From a virus (taxonomy: Duplodnaviria > Heunggongvirae > Uroviricota > Caudoviricetes), in IMG/VR virus record IMGVR_UViG_2740892230_000028: a stretch of DNA of 10,854 nt. One strand, 5' to 3'. The translations under genes were made by a program, and so were the position numbers. Below are positions 1,140-10,209 of this stretch, piece after piece. The notes under the pieces are model-generated. The model did no database searches, was not told the origin of the DNA, and saw only the letters and a list, made by a program, of their open reading frames with translations. How positions within the stretch are numbered: the first letter of the stretch is position 1; the number at the start of each line of letters is the position of its first letter.

Positions 1140-1475
1140 ATGAAGTGGATTGTGATTGATACAGTTATCCAGCCATCATGCGGAATATCTTTTTCAGTCA
1201 TATGGAGTAAAATAAAATTAATAATCTGGTATCAATCGGATGCTTTCTTACCTCCTGAAAGTATATTTACACTGACTCACACAGGCATCATGCTCAATAA
1301 CAAAGTGCTGCCTGTAACCATTTACAACGTAGTACCATTCAATAAAACATTCTGGAATTTAATCAAAAACAGCCAGGAATGCCCTACAAATACAGATAAC
1401 GTATTGAATGAATGCTTTAATAACCGTTGCACTCTGCAAATATGTCCTTATGGGCTAAAACAACAAAGTCCATAA
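1140..1475 (+). CDS. Hypothetical orphan ORF in an AT-rich island (111 aa), opposite in orientation to the prophage genes
   Basis: A 111-codon open frame in visibly AT-rich DNA where stops should be frequent; AGGA about 8 nt upstream of the ATG; stop codon sits inside a 9-bp inverted repeat (TCCTTATGG / CCATAAGGA, 1443-1476). No recognisable family. Confidence 0.25.
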
Positions 1476-2440: not shown

Positions 2441-2517
2441 TGGCGCGTTGTACTGGATTCGAACCAGTGACCGATTGCTTAGAAGGCAATTGCTCTGTCC
2501 GGCTGAGCTAACAACGC
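2441..2517 (-). tRNA. tRNA-Arg (anticodon UCU), prophage-encoded
   Basis: Hand-folded cloverleaf: acceptor GCGTTGT/ACAACGC, D stem GCTC/GAGC, anticodon stem ATTGC/GCAAT with loop CTTCTAA, T arm ACTGG-TTCGAAT-CCAGT, discriminator G, CCA present. Confidence 0.85.
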
Positions 2518-2530
2518 TGGATACAGATAA

Positions 2531-2607
2531 TGGACCGCCTTCGGGGACCCGAACTCCGCGCAACCAGCTTCGAAAGCTGGCGCTCTTTCCTGATGAGCTA
2601 ATGGCGG
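2531..2607 (-). tRNA. tRNA-Arg-like (anticodon UCG), possibly degenerate
   Basis: Perfect anticodon stem CCAGC/GCTGG with loop TTTCGAA and CCA end, but an A-A mismatch in the acceptor stem, one mismatch in the T stem, and T-loop TTCGGGT (G where A58 is expected). Confidence 0.5.
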
Positions 2608-2614
2608 TATGTGA

Positions 2615-2690
2615 TGGTGGCCCTTGCTGGATTTGAACCAGCGACCTGGCGATTATGAGTCGCTCGCTCTCACCACTGAGCTAAAGGGCC
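2615..2690 (-). tRNA. tRNA with CAU anticodon, Ile2-like (lysidine type) or Met elongator
   Basis: Acceptor GGCCCTT/AAGGGCC, D stem GCTC/GAGC, anticodon loop CTCATAA, T arm GCTGG-TTCAAAT-CCAGC, CCA. Overall close to the E. coli tRNA-Ile2 sequence as I recall it. Confidence 0.8.
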
Positions 2691-2718
2691 GGGTCAAAAA
2701 ATAATAATCAGATGAAAA

Positions 2719-3432
2719 TCAATAATCAAGCCCTTGCCTGGATACATATCTGTCTGGCGGGAAGCCATAATAGCGGTGAAATACAGAAATAAAGTAGGAC
2801 CAGCTTGAATAACCGCATTTTTCTGCTACAGCCTGTCCATATCCATGCCGGGAACATAACATATTCACAGCAACACGCATCCGCTCTTCCAGCAACAAGC
2901 GACTGAACATGTGCCCTTCATTTTTCAGTTTTATCTTTAACAAACTCTCACTCATATGCAGGCGTAACGCAATCGCACCAAGCGTCCAGCTTGCTGATAT
3001 ATCTGTCTGAATTATCGCCCTGACTTTGGCACTTATACTGGATAAACATCCACTTAAAAATAATAATATCCGTTCATCTGATTCAAACAGCGACAGGCAT
3101 GCCATCATAAGAAACATATCCGTGGTATCTCCGGAAAATCTCTGGCTGGTAATTAAAGCCTCAGCCAACGCAGGGTTGTTGGGTTCCAGTGACAGATAAA
3201 GCGGAACGTCAGTCAGATGAGTTCTTGTCAGCTTATGCTGAATTTCCAGATATTGACTTACTATGGAATGGTTTATATCGAAAATTTTAACTTTGCCATA
3301 ATGCATAAGGAAAAGCGCCCTGATGCATTTGGTGGCCAGAACGACTGAGCCGGGCTTAAGTGACAACGTATCCTTTTCAAGAAAAATATTAATTGGGGAG
3401 CAAACCATGATAACTGAACAGACAACAACCAT
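2719..3432 (-). CDS. AraC/XylS-family transcriptional regulator (prophage moron)
   Basis: C-terminal double HTH signature ...SWTLGAIALRLHMSESLLKIKLKNEGHMFSRLLLEERMRVAVNMLCSRHGYGQAVAEKCGYSSWSYFISVFHRYYGFPP...; AT-rich gene. Start is ambiguous (ATG at 3432 or 3408) and neither has a clear SD; a TATAAT-like hexamer abuts the first ATG. Confidence 0.8.
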   Translation of the reverse strand: MVVVCSVIMVCSPINIFLEKDTLSLKPGSVVLATKCIRALFLMHYGKVKIFDINHSIVSQYLEIQHKLTRTHLTDVPLYLSLEPNNPALAEALITSQRFSGDTTDMFLMMACLSLFESDERILLFLSGCLSSISAKVRAIIQTDISASWTLGAIALRLHMSESLLKIKLKNEGHMFSRLLLEERMRVAVNMLCSRHGYGQAVAEKCGYSSWSYFISVFHRYYGFPPDRYVSRQGLDY

Positions 3433-4273: not shown

Positions 4274-4373
4274 GTGTAAAAAATCTTCTAACGTCAGGCA
4301 TAAAACGCCCANNNNNNNNNNCTGTATTAATAACTACCAGCACATTTAACGCACTGCGCTACTTTGCGGGCAC

Positions 4374-4396
4374 AAAAAACCCGCTCAGAGGCGGGG
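4374..4396 (-). terminator. Intrinsic terminator downstream of the CPBP gene, minus strand
   Basis: CCCGC-TCAGAG-GCGGG stem with a six-U run on the minus strand; homologous to the 4252-4273 terminator. Confidence 0.5.
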
Positions 4397-4536
4397 TCAA
4401 GCTATGCGGCGAAATAACCACTCTTAACAGCATACCTGATTTTTTACGTACGTAAATGCTTTGCCGTGCATATTTTTCATGCAAATGTCACGTCCTGCTA
4501 TTTTTCAGTCTTATAAATTTAAAACCATAGAAAAAA

Positions 4537-5355
4537 TCAATTATGTTTTAAAAATGGATAGGTAAAGAATAACAAGTGACACAGATTCAAACCAAAATGG
4601 AAAAGGGTGGCAACCCACAAACGCCCACTCCACATCCATGACAATCCATACACAACACCAGATAACGTGGCAAATAATACAAGTAAAGCACCACCTGAAT
4701 AGTGATAAAAACCAAACAACAAAGCCGCCACAATTAATGCAACCAATGGAGACGTTACTTCTGATAGCCGTGATTGAATATACCCTCTAAATAATGATTC
4801 CTCTGCCAGAGACACAAAAAACAAATTAGCCAATATAAACTCTGGCAACCACTCAGGAAAATGAATCTCTGGCTTTAATCCACCAAAAAAAACAGCCAAA
4901 AACAGGATAAGAGGAACAGAGAGCGACAGAGCCCCCCACTTCCACAAAGACACTTCTGATTTTACTTCTTTTTTAAACAAAGAAGATGTACACAGGACTA
5001 ACAAAAATGGCACCAGCGCTTTATCAAAATTAAAATACATTGTATAGGGAGTACTTTGAGGGCCAACAGTAACAGAATTTAGCACTACAGGATTGTGAAA
5101 CCCTGGCCATAGATGGAAAGATAATGCTATGGCTGATAAAACTATGCCAACTTCATATATAGATTTAGCCCAGGCGTTATATTTCCAGTTGAACTTCAAA
5201 ATAATAAAAAAAACGATTGTAGCAACAAAAAATAACACCGACCAATCAATAATATCATTAAGCACAGCCAGGACAACAGACACCGTCAACAATGAAAAAG
5301 CCACTACCTTATGCCAACTGAGAGTTGACAGTGACAGTACTAACACAATCCACAT
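4537..5355 (-). CDS. CPBP-family (CAAX protease / Abi-domain) intramembrane metalloprotease-like protein, moron directly downstream of Q
   Basis: ATG at 5355 with AAGGAG 5 nt upstream; multi-TM hydrophobic protein carrying the three CPBP motifs in order: EESLFR (EExxxR), FGFYH (FxxxH), HFGLN (HxxxN). Gene and flanks are visibly AT-rich. Confidence 0.8.
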   Translation of the reverse strand: MWIVLVLSLSTLSWHKVVAFSLLTVSVVLAVLNDIIDWSVLFFVATIVFFIILKFNWKYNAWAKSIYEVGIVLSAIALSFHLWPGFHNPVVLNSVTVGPQSTPYTMYFNFDKALVPFLLVLCTSSLFKKEVKSEVSLWKWGALSLSVPLILFLAVFFGGLKPEIHFPEWLPEFILANLFFVSLAEESLFRGYIQSRLSEVTSPLVALIVAALLFGFYHYSGGALLVLFATLSGVVYGLSWMWSGRLWVATLFHFGLNLCHLLFFTYPFLKHN

Positions 5356-5507
5356 AAGCACTCCTTTTATTTAATGATGAAGATTGATTATCAATATTTT
5401 CAATTCACCAGGCAACATTTTATCTACCTTCCACAATACATGACCATCAAAAAAATAAACATGTTAATTATAAACACAGAAAACATAACCCTCATCACTA
5501 TATATCC
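5356..5507 (-). promoter_or_regulatory. AT-rich Q-to-moron intergenic region, the expected location of the late promoter and Q-utilisation site
   Basis: Positional inference from lambdoid gene order; a TATAAT hexamer lies on the minus strand at 5467-5472 with no convincing -35, and no GC hairpin terminator is present. Confidence 0.3.
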
Positions 5508-5879
5508 CTACCGCATATCCATATCTAACCGGACATTCAGAGCCATAAGCATTCCTTCAATAATACCTTCCGCTTTATAAAGCCTTTTACCAATAAGCCC
5601 ATCAGAACATCTATGCTTACGTGCAAGAGCCATAAATGTCATTCCACCTACGTAATAATCCACCAACAAATCGTGCAAATACTGATTATTCTTGTTTAAT
5701 CGTGCCATACAACCACAAATTATCATGGCGTCATCATCAGAACACTGAGGACGTGATTTCACTTTAGTCGGGATTAATCCTTTAAAACCAGCAGCTATCG
5801 AGGGCCATGTTACATCTTCATGATTATTTGCTGCCCATGCCCCCCATCGCTCAAGAACCATCTGGATATCACGCGCCAT
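5508..5879 (-). CDS. Short Q-family antitermination protein (quuD-like, ~124 aa)
   Basis: [61 protein letters not shown]...; ATG at 5879 with GAGGTGG 5 nt upstream; overlaps the rusA 3' end by 11 nt. Resembles the short antiterminator that follows rusA in E. coli DLP12, from memory. Confidence 0.7.
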
Positions 5880-6240
5880 CGTTACCACCTCTGATTTCGT
5901 AAATCTTCACGCCCAGCCGTCCACCTGGCACAGGCTGACCGCGCACAATATTGATTTCATCAAACTGCTCGTCATCAATGAGCACTTCCGCATGCGTCAG
6001 CGCATCCAGCGGTGCTTTCAGAATGTTGTCCAGGTCACGGCGGCGCTTATCCGGTGGTTCTGCAATAATTTTTATTGCCAGCCGTCCGGACAGGCTTAAT
6101 TTCAGCCGCTGCTGGCGAACAATAAGCGCCACAGCCCGGCGATAACGCTCACCGGCTTTTGATACAAAATATGTGCTGCCACGACGTCGCCAGTAGGTGT
6201 TCACCGTCGGCGGGTAAGGCAAAACAAACTCTATACGCAT
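5869..6240 (-). CDS. rusA: Crossover junction endodeoxyribonuclease RusA (Holliday junction resolvase)
   Basis: [41 protein letters not shown]...[31 protein letters not shown]... matches the conserved RusA core (DKRRRDLDN); AAGAGGT SD upstream of the ATG at 6240. Confidence 0.9.
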
Positions 6241-6252
6241 CAGTAACCTCTT

Positions 6253-6827
6253 TTACCCGAGCACGCCGGTTGCAAAAGCGTGATCAAGAAAACGAAAAAT
6301 TAAATCAACCTGGGAACCATGCTTTTCTTCGAACGCCAGCGGATCCGCATGAAGCTCGTTGTGATGCTCCCGACACAGCGGTAGCGTGAAAATATCGTGG
6401 GATTTTGTTCCCATTCCACCCTGACCATGACCAATCAGATGATGAGGATCGTCCGCTGGCTTACCACAACACGCACACGGCTGTGTCTTTACCCAGCGTG
6501 TGTATTTCTCATTTACCCAGCGGCGACGTTTAGGTCGTTTCATGAAGGATTCCGGAGACTCCGGATCAACGGCAATGCTGACCACCGTCTTTTCCTGTGG
6601 TGGGTTCTGTTGCTGGTGGGTGTGAGGCGGTAGCGCAATATTTTTTGTGCGCTGCTTCAGTATGCTGGTGGCGGTCTGTTCTCCCGGTATGATGTCGCTT
6701 TCACGGTATACGGAGCGGATTTTTTCCGCCGGTAATCCCAGAGAACGACGCGATACTGCCTCAGGTAATGCGTCCACCACCTGATTGCAGACTGCCCACC
6801 AGGATAATTCAGCCAGCGATAATTCCC
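6253..6827 (-). CDS. DUF968 (YdfU-like) prophage protein, C-terminal ~190 codons (5' end lost in N-run)
   Basis: ...ELSLAELSWWAV...TVVSIAVDPESP...WVKTQPCACCGKPADDPHHLIGHGQGGMGTKSHDIFTLPLCREHHNELHADPLAFEEKHGSQ...; stop TAA at 6253-6255 is 12 nt before the rusA start. Confidence 0.75.
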
Positions 6828-6837
6828 NNNNNNNNNN

Positions 6838-7148
6838 CCCACCACAACGCTGGCAGTTTCTGAAAACCGGCACACCCTGTTTTTCCGACTCTTCACGATG
6901 AATGGCAACACCGCGCCCACGACAATCTGTACAGGCGGTGGAAACCTCCCCCTTTCCGCCACACTCCGGACAGGCAACTTTTANNNNNNNNNNACCACCA
7001 CAACGCTGGCAGTCTCTGATAACAGGCATACCACGTTTTACCGACTCTTCACGATGAATGGCAACACCGCGCCCACGACAATCTTTACAGGCGGTGGAAA
7101 CCTCCCCCTTCCCTCCACACTCCGGACAGGCAACTTTTACCACCTCCC
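6838..7148 (-). repeat. Two near-identical ~150-bp coding units, each encoding a paired CxxCxGxG zinc-ribbon module, separated and flanked by N-runs
   Basis: 6838-6983 and 6994-7148 differ by several substitutions; each encodes ...KVACPECGGKGEVSTAC(K/T)DCRGRGVAIHREES.K.G.PV.R.CQRCGG. The same module begins at the end of the Q-like N-terminal piece (7159-7245). Confidence 0.6.
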
Positions 7149-7158
7149 NNNNNNNNNN

Positions 7159-7734
7159 GACACCACGCCCACGGCAATCCTTACAGGCGGTGGAAACCTC
7201 ACCCTTTCCGCCACACTCCGGACAGGCAACTTTTACCACCTCCCTGACTTTTTTCCATTCCTCCCAGTAAGACGGATACACGCCTTTTGTGCACTTTGCC
7301 CACACTGGCGGCTTACCATCCGGATACTGGATCTTGTTTGTAAAAACCTCGCTTTCAATAAATTTTTTTCCGTGACAGCAGGGGCACTGTTTTTTGCTCG
7401 CCGCGCTACGGGCATAATCTTCAAACGCATACGAAGCCATAATGCGCATCACTACCGGTTTTATTTCTGCCGGGAGTTTTCTCAACGCCGCCACACGATC
7501 GCACCGACTGAGTGCATAATCTGCCAGTAATTCTGTTGCCCGCGCCCTGTCATTCATACTGATGCCCATTTTCCCCAGGAACGCAGAAAACCCCATCTCA
7601 GCCCGATTCTGTGTCATGCCCTGCGCGGCCATCACATCAGTGATACTCAGCGCATCTTTTGACGTTGAGGCCGATGCATCAGTCAGGCCGGGGGATTTTG
7701 GGGAGTAGTATTTCGGTAAATCTTCCAGTTTCAT
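7159..7734 (-). CDS. Lambda-Q-family antitermination protein, N-terminal part (3' end lost in N-run)
   Basis: MKLEDLPKYYSPKSPGLTDASASTSKDALSITDVMAAQGMTQNRAEMGFSAFLGKMGISMND...MASYAFEDYARSAASKKQCPCCHGKK... aligns motif for motif with my recollection of the lambda Q N-terminus (SPKSP, TDVMAA.GM.Q, GF..AF.GK, S.ND, FAY.DY.RSAA, C..CHG). The ATG at 7734 overlaps the upstream rusA stop (ATGA). Confidence 0.65.
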
Positions 7735-7968
7735 TTTTTGACCTGCCCTTCAAGCATTATGGGGTAAATCTTCACCCCCATACGTCCACCAGATACTGGC
7801 TGACCACGAACGATATTGATTTCATCAAACTGCTCATCGTCCATTAACACTCCCGCATGCGTCAGCGCATCCAGCGGTGCTTTCAGGATATTGTCCAGGT
7901 CGCGACGACGCTTATCCGGTGGCTCTGCAATCACCTTTATCGCCAGCCTTCCGGACAGGCTTAATTTC
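7731..7968 (-). CDS. rusA: RusA, C-terminal half (5' end lost in N-run); runs directly into the Q-like gene
   Basis: ...[78 protein letters not shown]. Confidence 0.75.
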
Positions 7969-7978
7969 NNNNNNNNNN

Positions 7979-8243
7979 GCAACCCCGCATGCGTCAGCGC
8001 ATCCAGCGGCGCTTTCAGAATATTGTCCAGGTCACGGCGGCGCTTATCCGGTGGCTCGGCAATAATCTTTATCGCCAGCCTTCCGGACAGGCTTAATTTC
8101 AGCCGCTGCTGGCGAACAATAAGCGCCACAGCCCGGCGATAACGCTTTCCCTCCTCCGAGATAAAATATGTGCTGCCACGGCGTCGCCAGTAAGTGTTCA
8201 CCGTCGGCGGGTAAGGTAAAACAAATTCTATGCGCTCGGTCAT
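7979..8243 (-). CDS. rusA: RusA, N-terminal part (3' end lost in N-run); a different copy from 7731-7968
   Basis: [88 protein letters not shown]; the segment before the N-run overlaps in homology with the segment after it, so the two pieces are not contiguous. Confidence 0.75.
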
Positions 8244-8590
8244 TTATGCTTTCCACTTCAGAACACCCGAATTTCTCGCGTGCATTAAAAAACGAATCAG
8301 CAACAACAGCTGGCTGCCGTGTTTTTCTTCAAAATCTTTTACCCCGGCGTGTAGTTCGCTATGGCATTTACGGCACAGCGGAATAACAAACAAATCATCA
8401 GCCTTTGTTCCCATCCCTCCCAGTCCATGACCAATGATGTGATGCGGATCATCTGCCTGATTGCCACACGTCATGCATTTCTGCGTTTTTACCCAGCGCG
8501 TGTATACAGGCATCTCTTCCCGTTGTGATTTCTGGCGCTGGAGATACTGAGCCGGTGACTCCGGATCAACGGCAATGCTGACCACCGTCT
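8244..8590 (-). CDS. Divergent DUF968-type C-terminal Cys/His domain protein (5' end lost in N-run), immediately followed by rusA
   Basis: TVVSIAVDPESPAQYLQRQKSQREEMPVYTRWVKTQKCMTCGNQADDPHHIIGHGLGGMGTKADDLFVIPLCRKCHSELHAGVKDFEEKHGSQLLLLIRFLMHARNSGVLKWKA*; roughly half the residues match the other DUF968 C-termini. Confidence 0.6.
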
Positions 8591-8600
8591 NNNNNNNNNN

Positions 8601-8633
8601 TGGCGGGTAAGGTAAAACCAAATCTATGGGCAT
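8601..8633 (-). CDS. rusA: rusA 5' fragment (first 11 codons, then N-run)
   Basis: ATG at 8633 with AGAGGTGA SD; MPIDLVLPYPP matches the RusA N-terminus (cf. [11 protein letters not shown] at 6240). Confidence 0.6.
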
Positions 8634-8645
8634 CAGTCACCTCTT

Positions 8646-9088
8646 TTACCCAAGCACGCCTGTTGCGAAGGCGTGATCAAGAAAATGAAAAATTAACTCA
8701 ACCTGGGAGCCGTACTTTTTCTCAAACTCCAGCGGGTCAGCATGAAGTTCGTTGTGGTGCTCCCGGCACAACGGTAGTGTGAAAATATCGTGGGCCTTTG
8801 TTCCCATTCCGCCCTGCCCATGGCCAATCAGGTGATGCGGATCATCAGCTGGCTTTCCACAACATGCGCACGGCTGCGTCTTAACCCAGCGTGTGTACTT
8901 TTCATTAACCCAGCGACGACGTTTAGGCCGTTTCATGAAAGATTCCGGAGACTCCGGATCAACGGCGATGCTTACTACCGTCTTTTCCTGTGGCGTGGTT
9001 TGTGGCTGGTGGGCGTGAAGCGGTAGCGCTATGTTTTTTGTGCGCTGCTTCAGGATGCTGGTGGCGGTCTGTTCTCCCGGTATGATGT
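8646..9088 (-). CDS. DUF968 (YdfU-like) protein, C-terminal part (second copy; 5' end lost in N-run)
   Basis: ...IIPGEQTATSILKQRTKNIALPLHAHQPQTTPQEKTVVSIAVDPESPESFMKRPKRRRWVNEKYTRWVKTQPCACCGKPADDPHHLIGHGQGGMGTKAHDIFTLPLCREHHNELHADPLEFEKKYGSQVELIFHFLDHAFATGVLG*. Fragment 9099-9247 is a further paralogous linker piece. Confidence 0.75.
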
Positions 9089-9257
9089 NNNNNNNNNNCG
9101 GGTTTTGCTGGTGGGCGTGAGGCAGCGGCGCAAGATTTTTTGTGCGCTGCTTCAGTATGCTGGTGGCGGTCTGCTCTCCCGGTACGATGTCGCTTTCACG
9201 GTACATTGAGCGGATTTTTTCCGCACGCAACCCCAGCGAACGACGTANNNNNNNNNN

Positions 9258-9635
9258 TGATGTCGCTTTCACTGTACACAGAGCGAATTTTTTCCGCACG
9301 CAACCCCAGCGAACGACGTAATACCGCTTCCGGTAGCGCGTCCGCCACCTGATTGCGGACCGCCCACCAGGATAATTCAGCCAGAGATAATTCACGCTCC
9401 TGCGTACCGCTTATTGCGTGACGGATGATGTCAATCATCCAGGCGGCCAGATTCTGTTGAGCAAGTTGATCCAGTGAATCAGATGTCTGCTCCCGCAGCT
9501 GGTTGTCGCAGTGCCAGCACAACACCATTGCGCCGGTACCATAACGGTGAATGACGGTTTCGCTGTGATGATAATCACCGTGTAGCCACTGGCAGGATTT
9601 CACGTGACGTAATAACCAGTCAGACAGTGCACCAG
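9258..9635 (-). CDS. DUF968 protein, middle section (bounded by N-runs)
   Basis: GALSDWLLRHVKSCQWLHGDYHHSETVIHRYGTGAMVLCWHCDNQLREQTSDSLDQLAQQNLAAWMIDIIRHAISGTQERELSLAELSWWAVRNQVADALPEAVLRRSLGLRAEKIRSVYSESDI; about 90% identical to the overlapping part of 9646-10041. Confidence 0.7.
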
Positions 9636-9645
9636 NNNNNNNNNN

Positions 9646-10041
9646 TATGCCATTCATTGCGTGGCGGATGACGTCAATCATCCATGCTGACAGGTTTTGT
9701 TGAGCAAGTTGCTCAAGTGATTCGGATGTCTGGTCGCGCAGCTGGTTGTCGCAGTGCCAGCACAACACCATTGCGCCGGTACCATAACGATGTATGACAG
9801 TTTCGCTGTGATGATAATCACCATGAGGCCACTGGCAGGATTTAACGTGACGTAATAACCAGTCAGACAGTGCACCAGCGCCACCAGCAGCACGAATCAC
9901 ACGCTCATTGCTGAAAAATGGCAGTAATGATTTATCTTCCGCCAGCGGCTGGCGAACGGCAGGAACGACCCCGGACGGCAGATTACGCATGCTTTTCGGT
10001 TCCGGCTCCACCAGTACCCGGGTATTGTGGAATACCGGCAT
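9646..10041 (-). CDS. DUF968 protein, N-terminal section (3' end lost in N-run); start uncertain
   Basis: MPVFHNTRVLVEPEPKSMRNLPSGVVPAVRQPLAEDKSLLPFFSNERVIRAAGGAGALSDWLLRHVKSCQWPHGDYHHSETVIHRYGTGAMVLCWHCDNQLRDQTSESLEQLAQQNLSAWMIDVIRHAMNGI. ATG at 10041; an in-frame GTG at 10113 with GGAGGT 3 nt upstream is an alternative start. Confidence 0.6.
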
Positions 10042-10064
10042 GGATTCACGGCCCGGCTTAACGA

Positions 10065-10209
10065 TCACCAGCCCGAGTTCCGGTACCAGAACAGGTCGAA
10101 GTAATACCCGCACATTACCTCCAGATCCGTTGCTGGAATGTGCGGGACGGACGCGGTGGCCGTTCGGAGTAAGGGAGCCTGACGGAGATTATCCAGTGAC
10201 GGTAGTCGA
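10065..10209 (-). CDS. C-terminal fragment of an unidentified upstream nin-region gene
   Basis: Open frame ...RLPSLDNLRQAPLLRTATASVPHIPATDLEVMCGYYFDLFWYRNSGW* ending at TGA 10065-10067, 24 nt upstream of the DUF968 ATG; no family recognised. Confidence 0.3.

Follow-up and report, generated by a model that had tools for sequence, protein, structure and literature searches.

A Tandem Zinc-Ribbon Array in a Qλ-Family Antiterminator Gene as the Very Probable Product of Draft Assembly from Three Prophage Alleles

Introduction

The antiterminator Q of phage lambda (Qλ, 207 aa; family PF03589; PDB 4MO1 and 7UBJ-7UBN) has a helical body with a helix-turn-helix motif, and a zinc-ribbon arm, formed by residues 114-152, which makes contacts with the Q-binding element, the σ region 4 and the zinc-binding domain of the RNA polymerase; its residues 1-44, together with NusA, fold into a torus that narrows the RNA-exit channel (PMC9388147). 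The cryptic prophage Qin of E. coli K-12 encodes a putative antitermination protein Q, YdfT (QuuQ, b1559), with four cysteine motifs (CEHCSGTG, CQHCHGKG, CRGCKGKG and CGRCNGNR), in a neighbourhood where hokD is followed by a DUF968 gene (ydfU) and then by Q.

In the window, that is, the whole stretch of 10,854 bases of DNA that was analysed here, a preliminary description made from the letters had detected a lambda-Q-like N-terminus followed by two further units of about 150 bp repeating its paired zinc ribbon, and had proposed either an expanded tandem array within Q or the Q zinc-finger region of several prophages collapsed by the assembler. The data presented below make it very probable that this array arose in draft assembly and scaffolding and is not a gene, alleles of three prophages having been set next to one another. 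The gene behind it, an antiterminator of the Qλ family, is already known and commonly annotated.

Results

The Intact Gene and Its Described Relatives

The Q part at 7159-7734 (minus strand) corresponds to a gene whose intact form at the O104:H4 locus L001 (3501-4322, protein P0002) has 822 bp and codes for 273 aa. The lambda-like character that had been claimed for its N-terminus was confirmed, as residues 1-113, encoded by the window at 7396-7734, align to Qλ 1-113 (PDB 7UBM; E = 2.3e-38 for the whole protein of the intact homologue, E = 2.4e-22 for the domain) and comprise the torus-forming N-terminus, equivalent to Qλ 1-60, and the first half of the body. The search with Q-family profiles that had been recommended in the preliminary description gave 166.1 bits for PF03589 against a cut-off of 26.7 (E = 2e-49) with the L001 gene, which is 99.1% identical in DNA to the piece of the window. 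The 273-aa Q also matches PHROG 127, "anti-termination protein Q-like", over its full length, and precomputed annotations list for it the newer Pfam family PF27659 (CHP02642). In NCBIfam no specific model was found for it, only weak matches to DnaJ, anti-TRAP and zinc-ribbon models.

The 273-aa Q resembles Qλ in that it aligns to Qλ 1-113 and 116-207, the aligned parts being the RNA-exit-channel torus segment, the helical body and the zinc-ribbon arm, and in that its gene follows RusA and precedes the late region. It differs in being longer (273 versus 207 aa), and the identity is around 31% in the structural alignment. An AlphaFold model of the intact protein (mean pLDDT 77) matches chain Q of 7UBN, which is Qλ in its loading complex with NusA, with E = 2e-14 and a TM score of 0.70 normalised to the target. 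Four cysteine motifs are present once each, CPCCHGKK at residue 117, CPECGGKG at 171, CKDCRGRG at 184 and CQRCGGRG at 210. An arm equivalent to Qλ 114-152 is recognised by sequence, with C184/C187 and C210/C213 aligning to CRDC...CGRC at the same 22-residue spacing, and these cysteines are invariant in 25 homologues. By homology to Qλ, the 273-aa Q would act at its own late promoter, binding a Q-binding element there and loading, with NusA, on the σ-paused RNA polymerase, which it would make terminator-resistant.

YdfT shares the four-motif architecture, with 39% identity over the full length (E = 6e-58), and also the gene neighbourhood, but it has only 250 aa, its motifs 1 and 2 are joined by a shorter linker, and Qin has no RusA between ydfU and ydfT. 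The cysteine-rich domain of DnaJ (PF00684) also has four CxxCxGxG-type motifs like those of the 273-aa Q, the first of which ends here in K and not in G. A DnaJ-like domain was nevertheless rejected, as PF00684 scored 28.0 bits, below its gathering threshold of 32.7, and the pairing of the motifs is probably different; the further DnaJ matches, to the TIGR02349 model and to DnaJA2 with Foldseek (E = 0.36), were weak. The alignment of motifs 3 and 4 as the Qλ ribbon implies a 1+2 and 3+4 pairing, versus 1+4 and 2+3 in DnaJ. The spacing between the motifs (46, 5 and 18 residues) also differs from what we take to be that of E. coli DnaJ.

The Q segment is found in about 2,430-2,500 of 5,426 finished E. 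coli genomes (around 46%), with up to four copies per genome, and the subfamily is also present in Salmonella, Klebsiella, Enterobacter and Serratia, apart from YdfT of K-12.

The Window Consists of Fragments Joined by Spacers

A scan of the whole window detected 19 runs of N, each exactly 10 long, in such a way that the window is made of 20 fragments of 58-2506 bp joined by 10-N spacers. The region around the Q pieces contains the following features:

7735-7968, minus strand: remainder of fragment A, 3' portion of a RusA-family resolvase gene
7159-7734, minus strand: Q part of fragment A, 5' 576 bp (aa 1-192) of a Qλ-family gene, allele A
7149-7158: spacer of 10 N between fragments A and B
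6994-7148, minus strand: fragment B, second Q allele, gene positions 491-645, with CPECGGKG, CKDCRGRG and CQRCGG
6984-6993: spacer of 10 N between fragments B and C
6838-6983, minus strand: fragment C, third Q allele, gene positions 500-645, with CPECGGKG, CTDCRGRG and CQRCGG
6828-6837: spacer of 10 N between fragment C and the 2.5-kb fragment
6253-6827, minus strand: C-terminal 190 codons of a DUF968 gene of another prophage (PF06147 DUF968, E = 4.8e-78)
5869-6240, minus strand: intact RusA gene on the 2.5-kb fragment (PF05866, E = 1.1e-15; RusA annotated in locus L006)
5508-5888, minus strand: intact gene of a Q21-family antiterminator of 126 aa (PF06530, E = 4.9e-52; "antiterminator Q family protein" in L006)

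The two units described as extra, 6994-7148 and 6838-6983, are thus each exactly one N-delimited fragment (B and C). They do not follow the Q gene contiguously, as had been stated, since each has 10 N on both sides, which went unmentioned, and the pieces are parallel. The motifs CPCCHG, CPECGGKG and CKDCRGRG reported for the Q fragment are indeed there: fragment A carries CPCCHGKK, CPECGGKG and CKDCRGRG, and breaks off at position 576 of the gene. At its other side the RusA stop overlaps the Q start (listed ORF 7731-8243), and annotated finished genomes also have RusA under this match. The Q pieces and the DUF968 segment at 6253-6827 are in one frame only through the arithmetic of the spacers.

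Residues 215-273 of Q, the last 59 codons at its 3' end, gave no match in the window by tblastn. [quoted passage not shown] Compared with Qλ, it holds just residues 1-192 of one allele and two allelic scraps, with the halves of the zinc-ribbon arm on different fragments. The Q21-type gene at 5508-5888 is the sole intact Q gene of the window, and it belongs to a third prophage and to a family unrelated to the Qλ-type pieces.

Fragments A, B and C Are Parallel Alleles of One Gene

When aligned to the intact 822-bp gene, the fragments are stacked, with A covering positions 1-576, B 491-645 and C 500-645; therefore B and C repeat the end of A and also extend A, running 69 bp past its end and adding the fourth motif (CQRCGG) that A does not have. 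The overlap between A and B in gene coordinates is of 86 bp, with 7 mismatches. The last 85 bp of 7159-7968 are 92.9% identical to B, and the last 76 bp 93.4% identical to C, far above chance, and B and C are 93.1% identical to each other over 145 bp (11 mismatches in 146). The near-identity attributed to the units (92.9-93.4%) was therefore real, but not the repetition of the same pair of motifs, given the CQRCGG added in both B and C.

In NZ_CP027544.1 (strain 2013C-3264), the Q gene of locus L002 at 4.974 Mb has 0 mismatches in 155 positions to B, and that of locus L003 at 5.230 Mb has 0 in 146 to C, in such a way that the B-type and C-type loci lie 256 kb apart on one finished chromosome. 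Both genes have 822 bp and code for 273 aa, with the four motifs once each, in a DUF968-RusA-Q block. For the 576-bp Q part of A, the best identity was 99.1%, to genes annotated as "antitermination protein", with no 100% match among the finished genomes checked. It has 5 mismatches in 576 to the L001 allele of O104:H4, none of them in the last 86 bp, and 21-23 mismatches to the Q genes of NZ_CP027544.1, from which allele A is absent. The fragment 4322-6827 is 100% identical to positions 948912-951417 of NZ_CP027544.1, which correspond to a third prophage at 0.95 Mb, and it starts mid-way in what is there an ordinary DUF968 gene of 1050 bp, followed by RusA, by the 126-aa Q21-family Q and by a CPBP protease.

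As these pieces match separate loci, the listed ORF of 493 aa at 6253-7734, which runs through Q residues 1-192, allele B, allele C and the DUF968 C-terminus, is a chimera of four unrelated pieces. The second proposal of the preliminary description, the Q region of several prophages brought together by the assembler, was essentially correct, B and C being the genes of two prophages, except that they were not collapsed: they were kept separate and then concatenated.

The three alleles could also have been supplied by a mixed or contaminated sample, with at least two E. coli strains, the concatenation artefact being otherwise the same. The absence of allele A from NZ_CP027544.1, a sequence that has B, C and the 2.5-kb block, goes in that direction, as does the 100% identity of some fragments of the window to an O104:H4 prophage instead. 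However, each finished E. coli genome has up to 4 copies of the Q segment and up to 8 DUF968-RusA places, so that three Qλ-type alleles (the source has at least three) in one genome are unremarkable, and lambdoid prophages are mosaic, so short 100% matches to different strains are expected. We therefore consider a mixed sample very unlikely.

Relatives of the Gene in Finished Genomes and Protein Collections

A real tandemly expanded zinc-ribbon segment in Q would require that the assembler had left the repeat junctions unclosed as 10-N gaps. The units are certainly adjacent, on one strand and in frame, and there are ten unread bases at each junction, but this explanation is extremely improbable, and the expanded array first put forward for Q was not upheld. 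Instead of contiguous sequence across the unit junctions there are 10-N runs at 3 of the 3, and instead of succeeding each other head to tail the units map in parallel to 491-645, with B and C as single-copy alleles at separate loci. The units diverge by 7-8%, yet for both B and C a finished genome has a stand-alone allele, each at its own locus, that matches at 100%, and the array would end fused to the middle of the DUF968 gene of a third prophage. That the N runs mask real sequence was likewise rejected, as the fragments on their two sides share gene positions, diverge by 7-8% and have their 100% matches at different loci.

A real array would be expected to span around 400 bp in finished genomes. 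The stretch formed by the 3' part of A, B and C (423 nt) gave three stacked pieces on a span of 171 bp in 40 of the 40 best finished E. coli genomes, and this span was never exceeded in them. The expanded form was found neither in these 40 genomes nor among the listed matches from a collection of 5.8 billion proteins, in which the listed full-length relatives have 260-277 aa, with each motif in single copy, except for one rearranged metagenomic singleton of another structure. A set of 25 relatives with 56-92% identity, drawn from E. coli, Salmonella, Klebsiella, Enterobacter, Citrobacter, Serratia and others, showed each motif once and all eight motif cysteines invariant, only the linker between motifs 1 and 2 varying in length. 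The junction of A, any 10 nt and B had 0 matches in 185,579 species-representative genomes, a weak test that covers exact matches in one genome per species.

The exception, P0001, was the top protein match (337 aa) and was discarded as a true expansion, as a duplicate of residues around 96-178 stands before residues of around 19-273 and no zinc-ribbon units are gained. It is a singleton, encoded at 704-1717 of a contig of 1814 bp (L004; GCA_029782595.1, contig JARCCX010207601.1) from a highly fragmented assembly, with a separate Q fragment of 67 aa upstream, and it, too, probably arose by misassembly of paralogous Q genes. There is no genuinely expanded form among the relatives examined, and the real gene is ordinary, single-copy and widespread.

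Origin of the Apparent Array

The ends of the fragments carry a defined signature. At nine "right" ends, exactly 34 identical nt precede the first mismatch to the paralogous fragment, and in eleven comparisons of "left" ends (eight different ends) this run is 0, the terminal base itself being mismatched. From this signature we infer unitigs of a de Bruijn graph with k = 35, the overlap of k-1 being kept at one end. The fragments are arranged in descending coordinates of one reference prophage locus, and these coordinates suggest a reference-guided ordering and then concatenation with 10-N spacers.

The source would be a prophage-rich E. coli close to the STEC strain 2013C-3264, with several lambdoid prophages and with paralogous DUF968-RusA-Q late-regulation blocks that are 87-97% identical. 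A k-mer graph assembler (k = 35, judging by the ends) would break these paralogues into short unitigs at allele-specific SNPs, and the unitigs would be ordered by their map position on one reference prophage and joined by 10-N spacers. The alleles map to the same reference coordinates, and therefore they are neighbours in the record and look like tandem repeats. The discriminating SNPs are at wobble positions, and therefore the last base of a fragment completes a codon (gene positions 576 and 645). A fragment start 34 nt upstream of a wobble SNP would be at codon position 2 (491 and 500), with 2 nt of the codon leading. The 10 N plus these 2 nt make 12 nt, that is, 4 codons, so the frame stays open through the spacers and gives the fictitious ORF of 493 aa. 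The break of A at 576 is not fully explained by such a simple graph model, as the L001-type allele departs from B only at 627.

The same pattern was detected beyond the Q pieces. All eight successive gaps in 6828-9645 (minus strand) are crossed in frame by listed ORFs, which are chimeras of Q, RusA and DUF968, and chance is insufficient for this. The RusA "ORF" at 7731-8243 (minus strand) has 170 aa, versus 123-125 aa in real RusA genes, and a stretch of 11 residues ending in ...DALTHAG is repeated on both sides of the gap at 7969-7978, by the same pseudo-duplication artefact. At 8244-10113 (minus strand), at least four overlapping allelic DUF968 fragments are concatenated, with gaps at 8591, 9089, 9248 and 9636, and the concatenation repeats the segments GALSDWLLRHVKSCQW... 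and ...GEQTATSILKQRTKN... That RusA and DUF968 show identical pseudo-duplications at gaps elsewhere, where the fragment ends also carry the k = 35 signature, is a further argument against a true array in Q.

Pseudochromosomes in which unitigs are ordered along a reference with N spacers of fixed length are a known class of assembly artefact. The window has their fixed 10-N spacers, fragments (58-2506 bp) with overlapping reference coordinates, and termini of k-1 = 34, and differs from them only in a coincidence of numbers (34 ≡ 1 mod 3, plus 10 N), which leaves the reading frames open. In such records, paralogous prophage genes systematically yield in-frame pseudo-tandem repeats and chimeric ORFs, which gene callers, or readers of the sequence alone, may take for repeat expansions or gene fusions. 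The window gives no ground for copy-number-variable zinc ribbons in Q.

A Putative Second Zinc Site in the 273-aa Q

Compared with Qλ, the 273-aa Q has an insertion of 68 aa (residues 114-181) at the base of the arm, with two extra CxxCxGxG-type motifs (C117/C120 and C171/C174). The structural model predicts a long β-hairpin (strands 125-136 and 159-170) with motifs 1 and 2 on either side of it, and these two motifs therefore probably make up a second zinc site, which lengthens the Q arm; the length of the hairpin tip varies across Enterobacteriaceae (proteins of 260-277 aa). Whether the insertion doubles the arm that contacts DNA and σR4 in this subfamily, with a second zinc likely bound by C117/C120/C171/C174, seems to us evenly balanced. 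If true, a doubled arm could change the geometry of Q-binding-element recognition or the contacts with the zinc-binding domain of the RNA polymerase with respect to Qλ. A limited literature search found no structural or functional study of a second zinc module, and nothing relevant on four-motif Q proteins. This putative second zinc module of a Qλ subfamily is the residual biological point, and it is independent of the window.

Other Features of the Window

The Q21-type gene at 5508-5888 shares 20 nt with the RusA gene upstream of it (5869-6240), and no NCBIfam model matches its 126-aa protein. Directly downstream of it, in the position of prophage cargo ("moron"), lies a gene at 4537-5361 (minus strand) for a CPBP/Rce1-like intramembrane protease of 274 aa, which is AT-rich (34-37% GC). 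The stretch 2441-3432 (minus strand) has a gene for an AraC-family HTH regulator of 237 aa (39% GC), with three tRNA genes after it. The first of these was called tRNA-Met (CAT) by ARAGORN, versus tRNA-Ile in RefSeq for the homologue in L006, a disagreement that is consistent with a lysidine-type tRNA-Ile2.

The fragment 881-1544 has a very AT-rich ORF (34% GC) at 1140-1475 (plus strand), and 489 bases of the fragment are 100% identical to the O104:H4 locus, with the anti-adapter protein IraM annotated there. The segment 2039-2325 (minus strand) and the fragments at 1-870 are 98.8-99.7% identical to the TerB-family pseudogene, the DUF3927 region and the start region of the SASA-family esterase in the L002 prophage, and the overlapping allelic scraps 487-748 and 759-870 are 92.8% identical to each other.
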